IMG/VR virus record: IMGVR_UViG_2657244986_000010
Span: 1-20,239 of that record
Length of the DNA stretch: 20,239 bases
Source: a virus
Taxonomy: Duplodnaviria; Heunggongvirae; Uroviricota; Caudoviricetes
Strand: one strand, 5' to 3'
The notes under the pieces: generated by a model
The model's database searches: none
Told to the model about the DNA's origin: nothing
What the model saw: only the letters and a program-made list of their open reading frames with translations
Position numbers and translations under genes: made by a program
Shown here: in pieces, positions 8,103 to 19,002 of the stretch
How the letters are laid out: each line of letters opens with the position of its first letter
How positions within the stretch are numbered: the first letter of the stretch is position 1

Positions 8103-9521
8103 ATGCCGATTCAGCAACTTCCGCTTATGAAAGGCGTCGGCAAAGACTTTCGAAACGCCGACTATATCGACTATCTGCCAGTGAATATGTTGGCTACACC
8201 CAAAGAAATCCTGAACAGCAGCGGATATCTTCGCTCATTCCCGGGCATTGCCAAACGTTCTGATGTGAACGGTGTATCTCGCGGCGTCGAGTACAACATG
8301 GCGCAGAATGCTGTTTATCGCGTGTGTGGTGGCAAGTTGTATAAGGGCGAAAGCGAAGTCGGTGACGTCGCTGGAAGTGGTCGCGTATCAATGGCGCATG
8401 GTCGAACATCTCAGGCTGTAGGCGTTAATGGTCAACTGGTCGAGTATCGCTATGATGGTACGGTTAAAACCGTCTCAAACTGGCCTACAGACAGCGGATT
8501 CACACAGTACGAGTTAGGTTCAGTTCGTGACATTACGCGCTTACGTGGGCGTTATGCGTGGTCAAAAGACGGTACTGATTCATGGTTTATCACTGACCTT
8601 GAAGACGAATCGCACCCTGACCGCTACAGCGCACAATATCGTGCCGAGTCTCAGCCGGACGGCATCATCGGCATCGGAACATGGCGAGACTTCATCGTCT
8701 GCTTTGGTTCATCGACGATTGAATATTTTTCCCTGACAGGATCAACTACCGTTGGTGCCGCTTTGTATGTCGCACAGCCATCACTGATGGTGCAAAAAGG
8801 CATCGCCGGGACTTACTGCAAAACGTCATTCGCTGATTCTTATGCGTTCATCAGCAATCCGGCAACAGGTGCTCCGTCTGTATACATCATCGGCTCCGGT
8901 CAGGTATCACCAATCGCCAGCGCGAGCATTGAGAAAATTCTCCGCTCCTACACTGCTAATGAACTGGCTGATGGTGTGATGGAGTCTCTGCGATTTGATG
9001 CGCATGAGCTGCTGATTATCCATCTTCCGCGCCATGTTCTCGTGTACGACGCATCTTCAAGCGCCAATGGTCCGCAATGGTGTGTGCTGAAAACGGGCCT
9101 GTATGACGATGTGTACCGCGCTATCGACTTCATTTACGAAGGCAATCAGATAACGTGCGGTGATAAGCTGGAGTCCGTGACCGGGAAATTGCAATTCGAC
9201 ATCAGCAGCCAGTACGACAAGCAACAGGAACACCTGCTGTTTACTCCACTGTTCAAAGCGGATAACGCCAGAGTGTTCGACCTTGAGGTTGAATCGTCAA
9301 CTGGCGTTGCGCAGTACGCCGACCGCCTTTTTCTCTCTGCAACCACTGACGGCATCAATTACGGGCGTGAGCAGATGATTGAGCAGAATGAACCGTTCGT
9401 TTACGACAAGCGTGTTTTGTGGAAGCGAGTAGGGCGCATCAGGAAAAACATTGGTTTCAAATTGCGCGTTATCACGAAGTCACCTGTCACTCTGTCTGGC
9501 GCTCAGATAAGGATTGAGTAA
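8103..9521 (+). CDS. Tail accessory protein (P22 gp10-like)
   Basis: 472 aa, the length I recall for P22 gp10, in the syntenic position. TAATG overlap with the tail needle gene. Confidence 0.75.
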
Positions 9522-10369
9522 TGGCGGATTCGAATCTCAATGTGCCGGTAATCATCCAAGCTACGCGGCTCGATACATCAGTTCTTCCACGCAATATCTT
9601 CTCGCAGTCGTATCTGCTTTACGTTATCGCACAGGGCACTGATGTTGGTAACGTGGCTAACAAGGCCAACGAGGCCGGACAGGGCGCTTATGACGCACAA
9701 GTCAGGAACGATGAGCAGGATGTGATTCTCGCTGACCATGAGCAGCGAATTTCTGCTGCGGAAGCAACGCTTGTTAATCATGAGGAGCGAATCAGCCAGG
9801 CAGAATCAACTCTTCAGGACCATGAAACGCGAATCGCTCAGAATGAAAGCGATATTGCGTCGCTTGATACCAGAGTTCAGTCGCTGGAGTCGCAGGTTTC
9901 AGACCATGAAACGCGCATTGATGCTCTGGAGTATGCAACCACACGCAAGAAGTCAGAGGTTGTTTACTCTGGCGTATCAGTAACCATCCCGACAGCGCCG
10001 ACCAACCTTGTTAGCCTGCTGAAAACGCTCACGCCGTCATCCGGGACGTTGGCACCATTCTTCGACACTGTTAACAACAAGATGGTTGTGTTCAACGAGA
10101 ACAAAACCTTGTTCTTCAAGCTGTCGATTGTCGGGACGTGGCCCAGCGGAACCGCCAACAGGTCAATGCAGCTAACATTTTCCGGTTCTGTTCCTGACAC
10201 ACTGGTAAGCGGTCGCAACTCGGCGACAACAACCGACAACATCCTGTTAGCTACGTTCTTCAGCGTGGATAAAGACGGCTTTCTTGCCACAAATGGCAGT
10301 ACGTTAACCATTCAGTCAAATGGGGCGGCGTTTACTGCCACAACCATCAAAATCATTGCGGAGCAGTGA
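9521..10369 (+). CDS. Tail needle protein (gp26-like) with extended C-terminal domain
   Basis: 282 aa. Central repeated coiled-coil blocks ([13 protein letters not shown] / [13 protein letters not shown] / [13 protein letters not shown] / [11 protein letters not shown]). The C-terminal ~140 residues are beta-rich, consistent with an Sf6/HK620-type knob rather than the shorter P22 needle. Confidence 0.8.
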
Positions 10370-10824
10370 TGATTCAGTTCAAACCAACGCGAAACATCGA
10401 CCTGATCGAAGCAGTAGGAAATCACCCTGACATTATCGCCGGGAGCAACAACGGTGATGGATACGACTACAAACCTGATTGCCGTTACTTTGAGGTGAAC
10501 GTGCACGGGCAGTTCGGCGGCATTGTTTACTATCAGGAGATTCAGCCGCTGACATTCGATTGCCACGCCATGTACCTGCCAGAGATTCGCGGCTTCAGCA
10601 AGGAAATCGGGCTGGCGTTCTGGCGATACATTCTGACTAACACCACCGTTCAGTGCGTCACATCGTTCGCCGCACGCAAATTCCGCCACGGGCAGATTTA
10701 CTGCGCAATGATTGGCCTTAAGCGTGTCGGAACCATCAAGAAATACTTTAAAGGCGTGGATGACGTGACGTTTTACAGCGCCACACGCGAAGAACTAATC
10801 GACTTCCTGAATCACGGGAGATAG
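10366..10824 (+). CDS. Ejection / DNA-transfer protein (P22 gp14-like)
   Basis: 152 aa in the syntenic position after the tail needle. GTG at 10366 overlaps the needle stop; an ATG follows at 10369. Confidence 0.6.
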
Positions 10825-12860: not shown

Positions 12861-15254
12861 ATGGCTAATTACCGTGATTTGTTAGAGCAGGCTGGCGCAC
12901 GTTACGGTGTGCCAGAAGGGTTGATGACTGCACTGGGTGCCAAGGAGTCTTCTTACAACCCTGCCGCAGTAAGCTCCGCCGGGGCTGTAGGATTGACTCA
13001 GGTCATGCCTGGGACATGGCGTGATATGGGTTATACCGATGAGCAAATGCAAAACCCCGAATATCAGGCTGACGCTGGCGCGCGCTATCTGGCAAAGATG
13101 TACCAGCAGTTTGGTAACTGGCGTGACGCTCTTCAGGCTTATCACGACGGTCCCGGCAACGTTATGAAGGCAAAGCGTGGTGAATATACGCCAGGACCTG
13201 AAGGCCGCGGTTACGTTGATGATCGCTTTGCTCAATGGGCGGGTGACCCGGTGACAGACTCAACAGTCGAACAGCGCGCCACCTCTGCAAAGGTACATCC
13301 TCAGCAAGACCCTAACAACCCGTTTGCACAACTGGAAGCACAGTCATCCGAACAAGTATCGGCATCAGGCGTGCAGTCAGACCCAAATAATCCATTTGCT
13401 CAGATTGAGCAGCAGGCAGCCAGTCAGCAGCCACCTCAACCCGTAAGTTCTGTCGCACCGAAACCTGTTCAGCAGCAAGGCGGAATAATGTCTGACCTTG
13501 GTAATGGACTTGCTGAAACCGGGCGCGGCTTACTACAGGCAGGAATCAACGTAGCGAACATACCTGCTGAACTCACTGATGCTGTAACAAGCGCGGCGGC
13601 TTGGGCTGGAGGTAAACTCGGCATTGGCGATGGTACATATCAACCAGCACCACGAGTAACAACGCAGGGATTAGAGCAGGACTTTGGCCTTCAGCAAGGC
13701 GCGCTGACTCCACAAACGACAGAGGGAAGGGTATTTGCTGAAGCATTGCCTTACCTCACTCCTGCTGGCGTTGAGAGAGCGGCAACACAGGCACCAACAC
13801 TTGCTGGTCGAATTGCTCAGGGTGCAACTCGTCTTCTAGCAGAAAACGCAGTTGGATCACTTGCTGCAAACAGTGCGAAAGATGATGCGGAAGCACTCGC
13901 CACCGATTTAGGCGTTGGTGTGCTGGCTGGCGGTGCTATTAACGCTGCCGGACGTGGATTAGGTGCTGCTTATCGTGGTGTTCGTGGTTCGATAGCACCA
14001 GAAGCTCAACAGGCTATCAGGTTTGCAGAGCGTGAAGGAGTTCCTCTGCACACCACAGACCTGTTACAGCCTACTTCCCGCGTCGGGAAAATGGCGCAGA
14101 CTACAGCAGAAAATATCCCCCTGGCTGGCACAAGCGGAATGAGAGCAACGCAACAGGAAGCGAGAAGCCAGTTGGTGCAGAGATTTGCCGATAAATTCGG
14201 TGAGTATGATCCAGCGGTTGTTATTGACAGCCTTAAAGCGAAAACATCAGGAATTCGTCGTGCCGCCGGTAATCGACTGGAGCAGGTTCAGAATGCTATG
14301 GCTGGAGTAAACATTCAGCCTGCGCGAGCAATTCAGCAGATTGATACAGAAATATCTAATCTGCAGAAGCTTGGTAAGGTCGCCGATAACGAGACTATTT
14401 CAAAACTTCAGTCCTATCGTGATGAGCTTGTTCGCAATGCTGGTCCTGATGGTCCGGTAAATCTGGATTTGAAGCAATTAAGCGATCTGCGCAGCCAGTT
14501 CAGAATGGACGTGAAGGGGGAACGACCAGTGTTGCCAAACCGTTCCGATGCTGCCATTCAGCGCGTTTACAAGGCGATGACAGACGATATCAATGGTGCC
14601 ATTGGTCAGAATCTTGGCAACGATACTCTCCGTAAATATCAGCAGGCCAATGCCGTCTACGCTGACGAAGCGGCGAAACTAAAGAATACCAGGCTGAAGA
14701 ATGTTCTCATGAAAGGCGACCTGACGCCGGAAGTTGTCAACAACATGCTATTCAGCAAGAACAAATCGGAAATTAAGACGCTGTATAACTCAGTTGGTCG
14801 TGTTGGCAGGGCGCAAATGCGCAATGGCATCATTGGAAAGGCGATGGAGAAATCAGGTGGTTCCCCTGACCAGTTCCTTCGGCAGCTTAACATCCTGCAA
14901 AACCAGACTGGCATCACATTTAAGGGGCAGGACGCTGCTTATCTGAAAGGATTAAAAAACTATCTGCAATCCACGCAGCAGGCTGCAAAAGCGGCAGTAA
15001 CAACACCCACAGGGCAGCAAACTATCCCGTTCATTATTGGGTATGGGACGGCAATGAACCCGGCGACAACTGGCGCAGCAGTAAGCTACGGACTTCTTAC
15101 TCGCGCCTATGAGAGCGAGCCATTCAGAAATGCAATGCTCCGAATGGCAAACACCCCACGCGGATCAACAGCGTTTGAGAAAGCCATGCAGCAGGCACAA
15201 AAGGCAATTAACGCTCTGACGCAGGGGGCTAAGTCTGATGCGTTGTCAGAATAG
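12861..15254 (+). CDS. Ejection protein (gp16-like) with N-terminal lytic transglycosylase (SLT) domain
   Basis: 797 aa. Residues ~20-100 carry the three family-1 lytic transglycosylase motifs: catalytic E-S (GAKESSYNP, Glu codon at 12945-12947), GLTQVMP, and AYHDGPGNV. Last gene of the ejection-protein cluster. Confidence 0.8.
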   Translation: MANYRDLLEQAGARYGVPEGLMTALGAKESSYNPAAVSSAGAVGLTQVMPGTWRDMGYTDEQMQNPEYQADAGARYLAKMYQQFGNWRDALQAYHDGPGNVMKAKRGEYTPGPEGRGYVDDRFAQWAGDPVTDSTVEQRATSAKVHPQQDPNNPFAQLEAQSSEQVSASGVQSDPNNPFAQIEQQAASQQPPQPVSSVAPKPVQQQGGIMSDLGNGLAETGRGLLQAGINVANIPAELTDAVTSAAAWAGGKLGIGDGTYQPAPRVTTQGLEQDFGLQQGALTPQTTEGRVFAEALPYLTPAGVERAATQAPTLAGRIAQGATRLLAENAVGSLAANSAKDDAEALATDLGVGVLAGGAINAAGRGLGAAYRGVRGSIAPEAQQAIRFAEREGVPLHTTDLLQPTSRVGKMAQTTAENIPLAGTSGMRATQQEARSQLVQRFADKFGEYDPAVVIDSLKAKTSGIRRAAGNRLEQVQNAMAGVNIQPARAIQQIDTEISNLQKLGKVADNETISKLQSYRDELVRNAGPDGPVNLDLKQLSDLRSQFRMDVKGERPVLPNRSDAAIQRVYKAMTDDINGAIGQNLGNDTLRKYQQANAVYADEAAKLKNTRLKNVLMKGDLTPEVVNNMLFSKNKSEIKTLYNSVGRVGRAQMRNGIIGKAMEKSGGSPDQFLRQLNILQNQTGITFKGQDAAYLKGLKNYLQSTQQAAKAAVTTPTGQQTIPFIIGYGTAMNPATTGAAVSYGLLTRAYESEPFRNAMLRMANTPRGSTAFEKAMQQAQKAINALTQGAKSDALSE
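13308..13409 (+). repeat. Two diverged tandem copies of a ~24-residue DPNNPFAQ-containing motif inside the gp16-like gene
   Basis: QQDPNNPFAQLEAQ... at 13308 and QSDPNNPFAQIEQQ... at 13380, spaced 72 nt (24 codons) apart, in the Gln-rich linker after the SLT domain. Codon usage differs between the copies. Confidence 0.6.
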
Positions 15255-15343: not shown

Positions 15344-15637
15344 TTAGTTGCTGTCTTTTTTATATAGCTCCTTGAGCGTATCAAAGACAATTTTCTTAAC
15401 CATATCAGATTGTTGTTCTGCCATACGCTCTGCATCGTCAATGTAAACTGATGCAGAGCTTTGTTTATCCAATGATTCTTCAATCGCTGCAATTATCTCT
15501 GAGTTCAGCGACCTGTTATTCATCTTCGCACGCTGCTTAATTTTCGCGTGGAGTTCATGCGGAAGTCTCAAGTGAAACTGCGCCTCGTCGTATTTGCTGT
15601 ACATCCTTGATGCCTCACCAGTTGGGTGGAATGGCAT
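15344..15637 (-). CDS. mnt: Mnt-like ribbon-helix-helix repressor (Arc/MetJ family)
   Basis: RHH segment FHLRLPHELHAKIKQRAKMNNRSLNSEIIAAIEESL and C-terminal DAERMAEQQSDMVKKIVFDTLKELYKK closely resemble P22 Mnt as I recall it. The true start may be the internal ATG at 15604 (GAGG 8 nt upstream), giving 86 aa. Confidence 0.8.
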   Translation of the reverse strand: MPFHPTGEASRMYSKYDEAQFHLRLPHELHAKIKQRAKMNNRSLNSEIIAAIEESLDKQSSASVYIDDAERMAEQQSDMVKKIVFDTLKELYKKDSN

Positions 15638-15725: not shown

Positions 15726-17810
15726 ATGTCAGATATCACCGCAAATGTTGTGGTAAGCATGCCTTCGCAACTCTTCACTATGGCTCGTTCTTTTAAAGCG
15801 GTTGCCAATGGCAAAATTTATATCGGTAAAATTGACACTGACCCGGTAAATCCTGAAAACCAGATTCAGGTTTATGTGGAGAACGAAGACGGCTCTCACG
15901 TTCCTGTTGCACAGCCAATCATCATTAACGCTGCTGGTTACCCGGTATATAACGGACAGATTTCCAAGTTTGTAACCGTGCAAGGCCACTCTATGTCTGT
16001 TTATGATGCGTATGGTGCACAGCAGTTCTATTTTCCGAATGTGCTGAAGTATGACCCTGACCAATTAAGGCAAGAATTAGCTTCTGACAGAGGAGCAACA
16101 TTATCATTAAGTCAGATAGCTACTTCTTACGGTCTTGATTTCTCGTTAGGCGGTGTATGGCGGGAGGGGGTGTTATCTAATGTTGATAACTGGTGGTGGT
16201 ATAATAATAAAATCTACACCGGTGGTAGCGGAAATCTGCCATCTATCCCATCAGCACCGTGGTATCCAATTCGCCCGGGATACAAATTAAACTTAACAGA
16301 CTTTATTACCTCCAAGGGTGTGAGCGATATTCTTGACGTAGTGGACTGGCAATGGGCTTTCGATAGCGCGAAGCTCAATGCTTCTCACACATCAATGCTT
16401 GACATGGACGCACGCGAATACACTATGAATTCCACTGGTTACATAGCGCCACAGGGTGTTGGTCTTCGCGGTCCGAAAGATGCAATGATGAACCCGTCTT
16501 TAGATGGTATAGCTGTTATATATGTCAATAAAGAGCCATCATCAAACGATGTGTTTGTGACAATGCAAGGTGGAAACGCATTTGAAAATTTCGGTATATT
16601 CTTTGCTCAGCAAATCTACACCACACTGGCCTCAGCGTTAGATACTGGGACGATGTTCAAACGCGTACCTGCAACTGGAGCTGGTGATGAAATTATGACA
16701 AAAGCATGCATATTAAAGGGGGTTAGCGCGTGTGGGGTTGCAAAACTTTGGAGTGGAAGCCTTGATGACAATGCGACAGGTGAATACGATGAGATAATTC
16801 GCGTTTCTGCCACGCCAAACAAATTTGGGCCTACATTTCGGTATGGTATTAGCACTGATTTTCTGCGCACAAAAACAGTTCATATTAATGCTAATGTTGT
16901 TAGCGCGTATCGAGCTAGATATGGAGTTGATTTTACGGTAAGAGCGCTAACCAGCGACAATACATCAGCCATAGGATTCCTTATTGAGCGCATGGATGGT
17001 GGTCTATTCGAGGATATCCTGACATATGGTGTTCCATTCTCGGTTGTTTTTGGTGCTGTTGGCGGGTCTGGCGGGGTTAACTCAGGTAGTGCAAACTTCG
17101 TATCATGTGGCTTTGACGCAACCTGTTTTCCTATCTACATTAACGCCCCTACAGGAGCATTTGGTATTTCTTTCTCTAACTGCCAGGCTGTCTTCGATGA
17201 GCAGTATGGTGACACGTCCGGAGCTCTGGTTTATTTGGGCGCAGGAGCTTCCTCACATCAGATAATGCTTAGCAATATCAAGGTGCAGAAGTCAGCAAGT
17301 TTCAATTATCGACCAGTAAGGGCTGTTTCTGGAAGTGCGGATAACAGGGTGACAATTTCAACCAGTGCGTTAACAGCCAGTCAAGACGTTCTTGATGAGG
17401 GAACCAGTAATCGCATAAGCATTATTGGATCAACAAGAAACCTCGGCGGCCTTAATATGATGACTAATACTACGGCAGAATCATCGCTGGTGTCATCAAT
17501 GGGGGAGTTGAATACAGTAGTAAGAAAGCAGTTATCAGTACCAATTCAAGCCGGCTCTTCATTTGTCAATTTGACAGTAACGTATCCATATACTGGTTGG
17601 CTTGCAACTCCTAATGTGATAACAGAGCTTGTCGGTGTGGCAATTCCTGGTCAACCAGATTCAACTCTTTACGACGTAAGAACGTTTTCTCGGACAGAAA
17701 ATGGGTGCGTACTTAGATGCACCTTGAGCTCAGCAGCGACTGGTAACGGTAACCTTATAGTTGACATATATGTTGTCGGTACGGTTCGGGGAACGCTCAA
17801 AGCGGTTTAG
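15726..17810 (+). CDS. Tailspike protein (conserved head-binding domain, divergent receptor-binding domain)
   Basis: Residues 1-113 ([11 protein letters not shown]...[21 protein letters not shown]...NVLKYDPDQ) match the conserved P22/Sf6/HK620 tailspike head-binding domain. GGAG Shine-Dalgarno 8 nt upstream of the ATG at 15726. The track's 15678 start adds 16 unsupported residues. Confidence 0.9.
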
Positions 17811-17886: not shown

Positions 17887-19002
17887 GTGAGCAAAAACAG
17901 GTTGCATGGATTAGATGCGTGGAGAGGTGTTGCTGCGATAATGGTTGCAATTTACCATTTTAACGTTAATTCGTTTATGCATGAATTAACGATAGTTAAA
18001 AACTCATGGTTATTCGTTGAGTTTTTTTTCGTGCTAAGCGGATTTATCATGATGTATAATTATTCAGATAGAATTAATAATCGTGAGCAGCTACTTTCTT
18101 TTTTATTTAAGCGTTTTTCAAGGATTTGGCCTCTTCATATATTTGTTCTTTTTTTATTTGTGCCTGTAGCTATTGCTGGATATGTAATCGGTAATATTGA
18201 TCCGTCTCGTTTTTCTGTTGCATCATTTATAAGTAATGTATTTCTTATCCAATCGTTAGGTGTGAATGATGGCGTGACATGGAACTCTCCATCGTGGAGT
18301 ATTAGCTCAGAGTTTTTTGTTTACGTTGCGTTTGGCCTTATCACACTAACCTTTACTAAAGGGTGGTGTCGTTTTATTATTCCGTCTTTGATTTGCTTTG
18401 TTATTTTGACTAATTTTTCGAATATGGGTGATGCATACAAGCTGGCCTTCTTTAGGTGTGGTTATTCTTTTTTTATTGGGTGTGTAGTATATTATTTGTA
18501 TAAATCAAAATCATTAAAATCTGGTACATGGTTAGAAATCCTATCGGTGGTTGCTGTTGTATTAACAATGTCATTATTTTTAATCAAAGGTAATGATTTG
18601 ATTGCATATTGCATGCCTTTTTTATTCTGTGCCATTGTTTTCTCGTTTGCTCGCGGGGATGGTGTAATTAGTAAAGCAATGGGAAATAATCTTTTTATAA
18701 AGATGGGTGAGGTTTCTTACTCTATATATATGACGCATGCATTTGTTGCTATTTGTATAAAAAGCTTGTTGCTTTTATTTGGAAAGTTTATTAACCACAA
18801 TTTTTTGGTTAAAATTGGTAACGAAACGCAAGTTAATCTAGGGGGAGTTCTAGCGAATAACTTATTGGATATAGTATTTTTGGTATTGGTCATATCTTTT
18901 TCAATGTTGACATATCGATATGTTGAGTCGCCATGTCAAAGAATACTCAATGCATGGTATAAAAATAAAAAGATGGTTGAGACATCAAATTTGGTTATGT
19001 GA
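17887..19002 (+). CDS. Acyltransferase-3 family integral membrane protein (O-antigen acetyltransferase-like conversion gene)
   Basis: GTG start at 17887 with an AGGGGGA Shine-Dalgarno upstream. N-terminal LDAWRGVAAIMVAIYH and internal WSISSEFFVY motifs typical of acyltransferase_3, with multiple hydrophobic helices. Visibly AT-rich relative to the structural genes. Confidence 0.85.
   Translation: MSKNRLHGLDAWRGVAAIMVAIYHFNVNSFMHELTIVKNSWLFVEFFFVLSGFIMMYNYSDRINNREQLLSFLFKRFSRIWPLHIFVLFLFVPVAIAGYVIGNIDPSRFSVASFISNVFLIQSLGVNDGVTWNSPSWSISSEFFVYVAFGLITLTFTKGWCRFIIPSLICFVILTNFSNMGDAYKLAFFRCGYSFFIGCVVYYLYKSKSLKSGTWLEILSVVAVVLTMSLFLIKGNDLIAYCMPFLFCAIVFSFARGDGVISKAMGNNLFIKMGEVSYSIYMTHAFVAICIKSLLLLFGKFINHNFLVKIGNETQVNLGGVLANNLLDIVFLVLVISFSMLTYRYVESPCQRILNAWYKNKKMVETSNLVM

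Follow-up and report, generated by a model that had tools for sequence, protein, structure and literature searches.

The open reading frame at 9521..10369 (+) of a 20,239-nt stretch of viral DNA, which was analyzed as a whole and is hereafter called the window, raises a question with three parts: is the product a tail needle, what stands at the distal end of that needle, and does this tip have anything to do with the choice of host? A first-pass annotation, made from the letters of the DNA, had answered the first part in the affirmative, described the C-terminal extension as being of the ‘Sf6/HK620 type’, and suggested that knob-type needles may contribute to host specificity. We revisited these claims using sequence identity, domain layout, repeat register, ligand-contact conservation, and genomic context. 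The gene almost certainly encodes the needle of an apparently intact P22-like (Lederbergvirus) Escherichia coli prophage, and its product is essentially the same protein as gp9 of phage Sf6.

A P22-Like Prophage in E. coli ST12468

Over its full 20,239 bases, the window is 100% identical to the chromosome of E. coli ST12468 (NZ_CP103694.1, roughly 1413005–1433243). The genes annotated there are, in order, lysis genes, terminase, portal, scaffold, P22-type coat, gp4, gp10, the needle, and a DUF2824 (gp14-like) gene, followed by three ejection proteins, an Arc-family gene, the tailspike, an acyltransferase, the integrase IntS, tRNA-Arg, and yfdC. From terminase to tailspike, this order matches that of P22, and in the segment compared with Sf6, which runs from gp4 to the ejection proteins, the order is the same. 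The needle gene follows the gene for the gp10-like tail hub (‘packaged DNA stabilization protein gp10’; 8103..9521, +) and precedes the gp14-like DUF2824 gene (10369..10824, +), an arrangement common to Sf6, HK620, and P22. The needle gene shares one base with each neighbor: the upstream stop codon runs into the needle start codon in TAATG, and the needle stop codon runs into the ATG of the downstream gene in TGATG. Coverage of the window by any one phage record stays below 80%, as is typical of the mosaic lambdoid and P22-like phages.

Some of the surrounding genes differ from their counterparts in the reference phages. The third ejection-protein gene, at the gp16 position (12861–15254, +; ‘lytic transglycosylase domain-containing’), encodes a protein of 797 aa, clearly longer than P22 gp16 (609 aa) and Sf6 gp13 (about 665 aa). 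The Arc-family gene (15344–15604, −) stands alone between the ejection genes and the tailspike gene, and the immI-like region is much reduced compared to that of P22 (mnt, arc, ant, sieA). The tailspike gene (‘head-binding domain-containing’; 15726–17810, +) is followed by an acyltransferase family gene (17887–19002, +), plausibly an O-antigen-modifying gene of lysogenic conversion. On the opposite strand, a mechanical list of open reading frames includes 9964–10311 (−, 115 aa) and 10312–10689 (−, 125 aa), which fall within the needle and gp14-like genes; the RefSeq record of identical sequence annotates neither, and there is no sign that they are genes.

Identity and Conservation of the Needle Protein

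The needle gene, a homologue of Sf6 gene 9 and P22 gene 26, is a real open reading frame, as had been proposed, with an ATG start and 282 codons followed by a stop codon. Compared over its full length, the protein is identical to Sf6 gp9 (NP_958185.1) at 278 of 282 residues. This alignment, which the first-pass annotation had suggested as a check, bears out its reading of a tail needle whose coiled-coil shaft follows a heptad repeat and whose C-terminal knob is of the Sf6 type, and the same conclusion is reached from structure and family comparisons. Against the PDB, residues 130–282 match the knobs of Sf6 (3RWN, E 3.9e-90) and of the E. coli HS prophage HS1 (4K6B, E 1.2e-89) with ~99% identity, while residues 1–144 match the P22 gp26 structures 2POH, 3C9I, and 4ZKP at E ~1e-43 (gp26 chains overall, 1e-43 to 1e-46). 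Pfam family PF16532 (Phage_tail_NK, ‘Sf6-type phage tail needle knob’) hits the needle with 388.5 bits against a cutoff of 27 (E 4e-117), and PHROG 1030 (‘tail needle knob’) spans the whole protein (8.5e-135). An NCBIfam scan of the needle and both neighboring proteins returned no family at E 1e-5. The analysis found no evidence against the tail-needle reading; a substitution at position 231, S231G, affects a residue that contacts phosphate at the tip of the knob and is discussed below.

At the DNA level, the gene is 96–97% identical to those of phages N7, Louie, Sf6, phiKp_30, and Kapi1, and it matches 100% the chromosomal gene of E. coli ST12468, whose product, WP_024245628.1, already bears the name ‘tail needle knob protein’ in RefSeq. 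The gene finds a match in 913 of 5,426 complete E. coli genomes, and in 463 of them the match covers at least 80% of its length. The protein is an already known, structurally characterized, and very common Sf6-type tail needle. These genome counts fit the report by Leavitt et al. of numerous small P22-like remnants in which an Sf6-type needle gene persists, e.g., in O157 and O26 strains.

Relative to Sf6 gene 9, the DNA carries 30 substitutions in 846 positions, which translate into 26 synonymous and four non-synonymous codon differences. The four substitutions, query vs. Sf6 gp9, are S92 vs. R, A113 vs. S, G231 vs. S, and A270 vs. S. At the level of sequence comparison, this preponderance of synonymous differences indicates purifying selection on a working gene.

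The N-Terminal Plug

In needles of this kind, the N-terminal domain is a helical hairpin that plugs the channel of the hexameric tail hub (PMC3741392, PMC9728967). The query has a plug domain homologous to that of P22 gp26: its N-terminal virion-binding domain (aa 1–57; 9521..9691, +) matches gp26 structures and is near-invariant in a four-way alignment of the query, Sf6, HK620, and P22, in which residues 1–72 hardly vary. Residues 3–64 match the 62-residue gp26 chain 8eap_B at E 1.7e-27. Within this conserved coding region, Tandem Repeats Finder reported a weak 9-nt near-tandem triplet, AACGAGGCC repeated three times (9650–9676, +; score 33; residues ANKANEAGQ), which is probably incidental.

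The Coiled-Coil Shaft and Its Repeat Units

Between the plug and the tip, residues 58–139 (9692..9937, +) form the coiled-coil shaft, as delineated by a heptad table, an AlphaFold2 helix, and the alignment to the helical core of P22 gp26. Heptad position a falls at residues 63, 70, 77, and so on, and is occupied first by Asn and then, at every seventh residue from 70 to 133, by Leu, Ile, or Val, i.e., the pattern of a heptad coiled coil. Position d is filled by Q66, H73, A80, H87, A94, H101, N108, L115, L122, H129, and L136, and position e is nearly always Glu or Asp. An AlphaFold2 model, computed for the monomer from the single sequence, has a helix over aa 42–141, with 10-residue block-mean pLDDT values of 84–95 over aa 61–130. 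The first heptads include the sequence NDEQD (aa 63–67; 9707..9721, +), an example of the NxxQD polar core motif, in which N63, Q66, and D67 are invariant across the four-way alignment. In P22 gp26, the Asn at a, the Gln at d, and the Asp at e of NxxQD coordinate Ca2+ (PMC13580157). The heptad register of the query agrees with this published a/d/e assignment, and, by analogy with gp26, NDEQD may likewise bind Ca2+.

The first-pass annotation had described four consecutive DHE-x-RI repeats in the shaft. Motif and repeat searches together with the heptad table do show four such motifs, namely DHEQRI (aa 72–77; 9734..9751, +), with His at core position d and Ile at a; NHEERI (aa 86–91; 9776..9793, +); DHETRI (aa 100–105; 9818..9835, +); and a second DHETRI (aa 128–133; 9902..9919, +). 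However, just the first three are adjacent, and the fourth comes after a degenerate unit, SLDTRV (aa 114–119; 9860..9877, +), which keeps the register but carries Leu where the motif has its position-d His. The [D/N]HExRI period is 14 aa, i.e., two heptads or 42 nt, and the array comprises five units, with the motif in four of them. When the full-length sequence or its helical segment was shuffled 200,000 times, no shuffle reached as many as two HExRI motifs. By their register, the DHE-x-RI blocks are two-heptad units that place His in the core of the predicted trimer.

The periodicity is also visible in the DNA, where a repeat search recovered four in-frame copies of 29 nt at spacings of 42, 42, and 84 nt, with 62–72% identity. 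The third and fourth motifs each hold an exact copy of the 14-mer GACCATGAAACGCG, at 9818–9831 and 9902–9915, for which ~0.14 chance matches are expected in the window even when two mismatches are allowed. Of the two positions originally given for this near-repeat, 9818 is exact, but 9901 should read 9902.

The number of HExRI-type motifs changes from needle to needle: one in HK620, two in P22, four in Sf6 and the query, and five in phage Gally. Shaft lengths among these relatives differ by multiples of seven residues. The varying repeat number and the multiples of seven fit the published range of 11–16 heptads per needle, with 11 in Sf6 (PMC3741392). His-containing two-heptad units of variable number are a tidy example of modular length evolution in a coiled coil, a variation that is already documented.

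The C-Terminal Knob

An Sf6-type needle is defined by a C-terminal domain similar to residues 140–282 of Sf6 gp9 (PMC3741392). In the query, 141 of the 143 residues in this region (9938..10366, +) are identical to Sf6, with ~99% identity to 3RWN and 4K6B and a match to PF16532, and the needle is of the Sf6 type by this definition. The six residues that contact L-glutamate in the Sf6 and HS1 knobs, in Sf6 numbering E146, K200, S248, D250, L255, and K277 (PMC3741392), can all be read in the query at the Sf6 positions. PHROGs 17153, 38468, and 21273 match the knob part of the query only. In the single-sequence AlphaFold2 model, the knob has block-mean pLDDT values of 32–59, mostly below 50, and the N-terminus is also mostly below 50. 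Because the model has low confidence in the knob, its fold rests on the 99% identity to solved structures. The 3RWN and 4K6B knobs were published as beta jellyrolls (PMC3741392), and the fold was likened there to the TNF-like knobs of the adenovirus fiber and PRD1 P5; by analogy with these crystal structures, the query knob would be TNF-like as well.

The C-terminal ~140 residues had been called beta-rich and absent from the shorter P22 gp26. The published jellyroll agrees with the first statement, and a BLASTP search with residues 140–282 failed to align them with HK620 gp26 and reached no better than E 0.57 with P22 gp26, in agreement with the second. Yet P22 gp26 is not simply a truncated version of the query, as it ends in an unrelated tip of ~90 residues. 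This P22-type tip, found in P22, HK620, and epsilon34 gp26 (gp26 residues ~141–233), is not present in the query. The designation ‘Sf6/HK620-type’ is therefore wrong for HK620, and an HK620-type knob was rejected: HK620 gp26 is 233 aa long, its C-terminus is P22-like and aligns with that of P22, and it has no similarity to the query knob. Leavitt et al. 2013 made HK620 the type of subtype A of the P22-type, with a knobless tip (PMC3741392), and annotators should not cite it as a phage with a knob-bearing needle.

The one departure from the known knobs is at the apex. Within the apical triad S231-R232-N233, the Ser and N233 both touch a phosphate ion, and S-R-N was reported in 2013 in all knobs of P22-like phages (PMC3741392). 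The query reads G231-R232-N233: its codon 231 (10211..10213, +) is GGT, for Gly, in contrast to the AGT, for Ser, of Sf6 and HS1. The triad is not a trait that defines membership among Sf6-type needles; its Ser and Asn are not conserved in more distant knob homologues (PMC3741392). Counting exact DNA matches, a 33-mer carrying GGT occurs in one of 5,426 complete E. coli genomes, the source strain itself, while the version with AGT occurs in 211. S231G is a rare change and the sole peculiarity of the query needle. Changing the triad residues in Sf6 left stability unaffected (PMC3741392), and S231G is probably neutral; it may also be a sequencing error.

Alternative Readings of the Gene and Its Knob

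Remnants carrying the needle gene are common in E. coli, and under one alternative the query would itself be a defunct copy in such a defective prophage. Leavitt et al. counted more than 100 E. coli genomes in which a short remnant, a few genes long, retains an Sf6-type needle gene (PMC3741392), and only 463 of the 913 genomes with a match cover at least 80% of the gene. In ST12468, however, the needle frame is full length and sits in a whole late operon of full-length open reading frames, accompanied by lysis genes, tailspike, and integrase, and its codons differ from those of Sf6 at 26 synonymous and just 4 non-synonymous sites. Since the late operon is complete, we rejected the remnant reading as very improbable, and we regard the gene as the working needle gene of a prophage that is P22-like and, apparently, intact. 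The repeats within it invite another interpretation, i.e., that the 42-nt units are a slippage- or recombination-prone array that actively varies the length of the shaft. The regular 42/42/84-nt spacing of four in-frame copies, with the exact 14-mer pair among them, would suit such an array, as would the spread of unit number among relatives (from one in HK620 to five in Gally), the shaft lengths in multiples of seven residues, and the 11–16 heptads across needles (PMC3741392). On the other hand, the copies share merely 62–72% of their DNA, Tandem Repeats Finder detected no 42-nt array, and the Sf6 and ST12468 genes are equal in length and repeat layout despite 30 substitutions. Taken together, the shaft repeats agree with heptad pairs having been gained and lost slowly over evolution, under constraint at the protein level, and not with programmed variation, which we consider even less credible than the remnant.

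That the knob binds a receptor and thereby determines, or helps to determine, host specificity is the alternative with the most in its favor, and it is still unlikely. The TNF-like fold resembles the receptor-binding knobs of the adenovirus fiber and PRD1 P5 (PMC3741392). Among P22-like phages, Sf6-type knobs are restricted to phages of Escherichia and Shigella, and the authors left possible a specific role of the knob in Sf6 infection of Shigella (PMC3741392). Nevertheless, a P22 chimera bearing the HS1 knob, which is of the Sf6 type, infects Salmonella efficiently, and mutations expected to abolish L-glutamate binding had no visible effect (PMC3741392). P22 virions without their native tip are still functional, this tip is dispensable in the laboratory, and knobs diverge by no more than 4.9% between phages infecting hosts with different O-antigens (PMC3741392). 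Specificity in this group of phages is instead set by the tailspike (PMC3741392), with OmpA/OmpC for Sf6 (PMC9728967). An altered tip slows the release of K+, and Leavitt et al. 2013 concluded that the tip is unlikely to act in host specificity and that it aids the kinetics with which the genome is delivered (PMC3741392). This evidence speaks against the suggestion made for the query, and annotators should not ascribe host specificity to the knob.

A Proposed Role for the Needle

By homology with Sf6 and P22, three needle chains would build one fiber, and the query is predicted to be a homotrimer from its 99% identity to proteins that crystallize as trimers (PMC3741392). The N-terminal ~60 residues would turn back on themselves in a helical hairpin and close the channel of the hexameric gp10 tail hub, thereby keeping the packaged DNA in the capsid. 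Residues ~58–139 would make up a trimeric coiled-coil shaft of about 11 heptads, and residues 140–282 a TNF-like jellyroll knob at the distal tip, which would bind three L-glutamate molecules at the subunit interfaces. Needles of 220–320 Å have been published, and that of the query would lie at the lower limit, with a length of about 220 Å and a knob about 45 Å in width. Upon infection, release of the needle would open the channel, and the shape of the tip may influence the speed of DNA delivery. Plugging, release, and the kinetic effect of the tip are extended to the query by analogy with published work on Sf6, HS1, and P22, and a role of the needle in penetration of the cell envelope, also raised in the first-pass annotation, is a published hypothesis.

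The His layers of the shaft permit a more speculative proposal. His73, His87, His101, and His129 occupy position d at regular spacing, each with Glu next to it at position e, and the number of such layers ranges from one to at least five per shaft. These layers could conceivably act as pH- or ion-sensitive switches that tune the stability of the shaft and hence the timing of needle release or membrane insertion, while, in this copy, S231G might in addition alter the contact of the tip with phosphate-rich lipids of the envelope. Read from the sequence, this combined idea is a long shot, somewhat less probable than a specificity role for the knob. If true, the His switch would apply equally to Sf6.

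Comparison with Known Tail Needles

The closest known system is Sf6 gp9, which, like the query, has 282 aa, an N-terminal plug, four [D/N]HExRI units, the knob, and the L-glutamate contact residues. Sf6 gene 9 also occupies the same position as the query gene and overlaps its neighbors by 1 nt on both sides. The host differs, being E. coli for the query and Shigella flexneri for Sf6. The copy described here adds no new architecture, and its significance lies mostly in correct annotation.

The needle of HS1 shares the knob with the query (~99% identity), and Ala305 of HS1 corresponds to Ala270 of the query, a position at which Sf6 has Ser. Unlike the query, HS1 has a shaft of 16 heptads rather than 11 (PMC3741392) and Ser at the position of G231. 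The needle of phage Gally is 317 aa long, which is the length implied for HS1, and contains five consecutive xH[ED]xRI motifs. P22 gp26 and HK620 gp26 resemble the query in the homologous plug and proximal coiled coil, including the NxxQD motif and His73, as well as in gene position and in the role of plugging the portal channel. They depart from it in being 233 aa long, in having two (P22) and one (HK620) DHExRI motifs instead of four, and in the C-terminal ~90 residues, which form a P22-type tip unrelated in sequence to the knob. The knob itself extends beyond the P22-like phages: homologues in T4-like phages, Mu-like Vibrio prophages, and an Aeromonas prophage are 37–63% identical and conserve the L-glutamate contacts (PMC3741392), but, in contrast to the query, they come without the gp26-type N-terminal plug and shaft.
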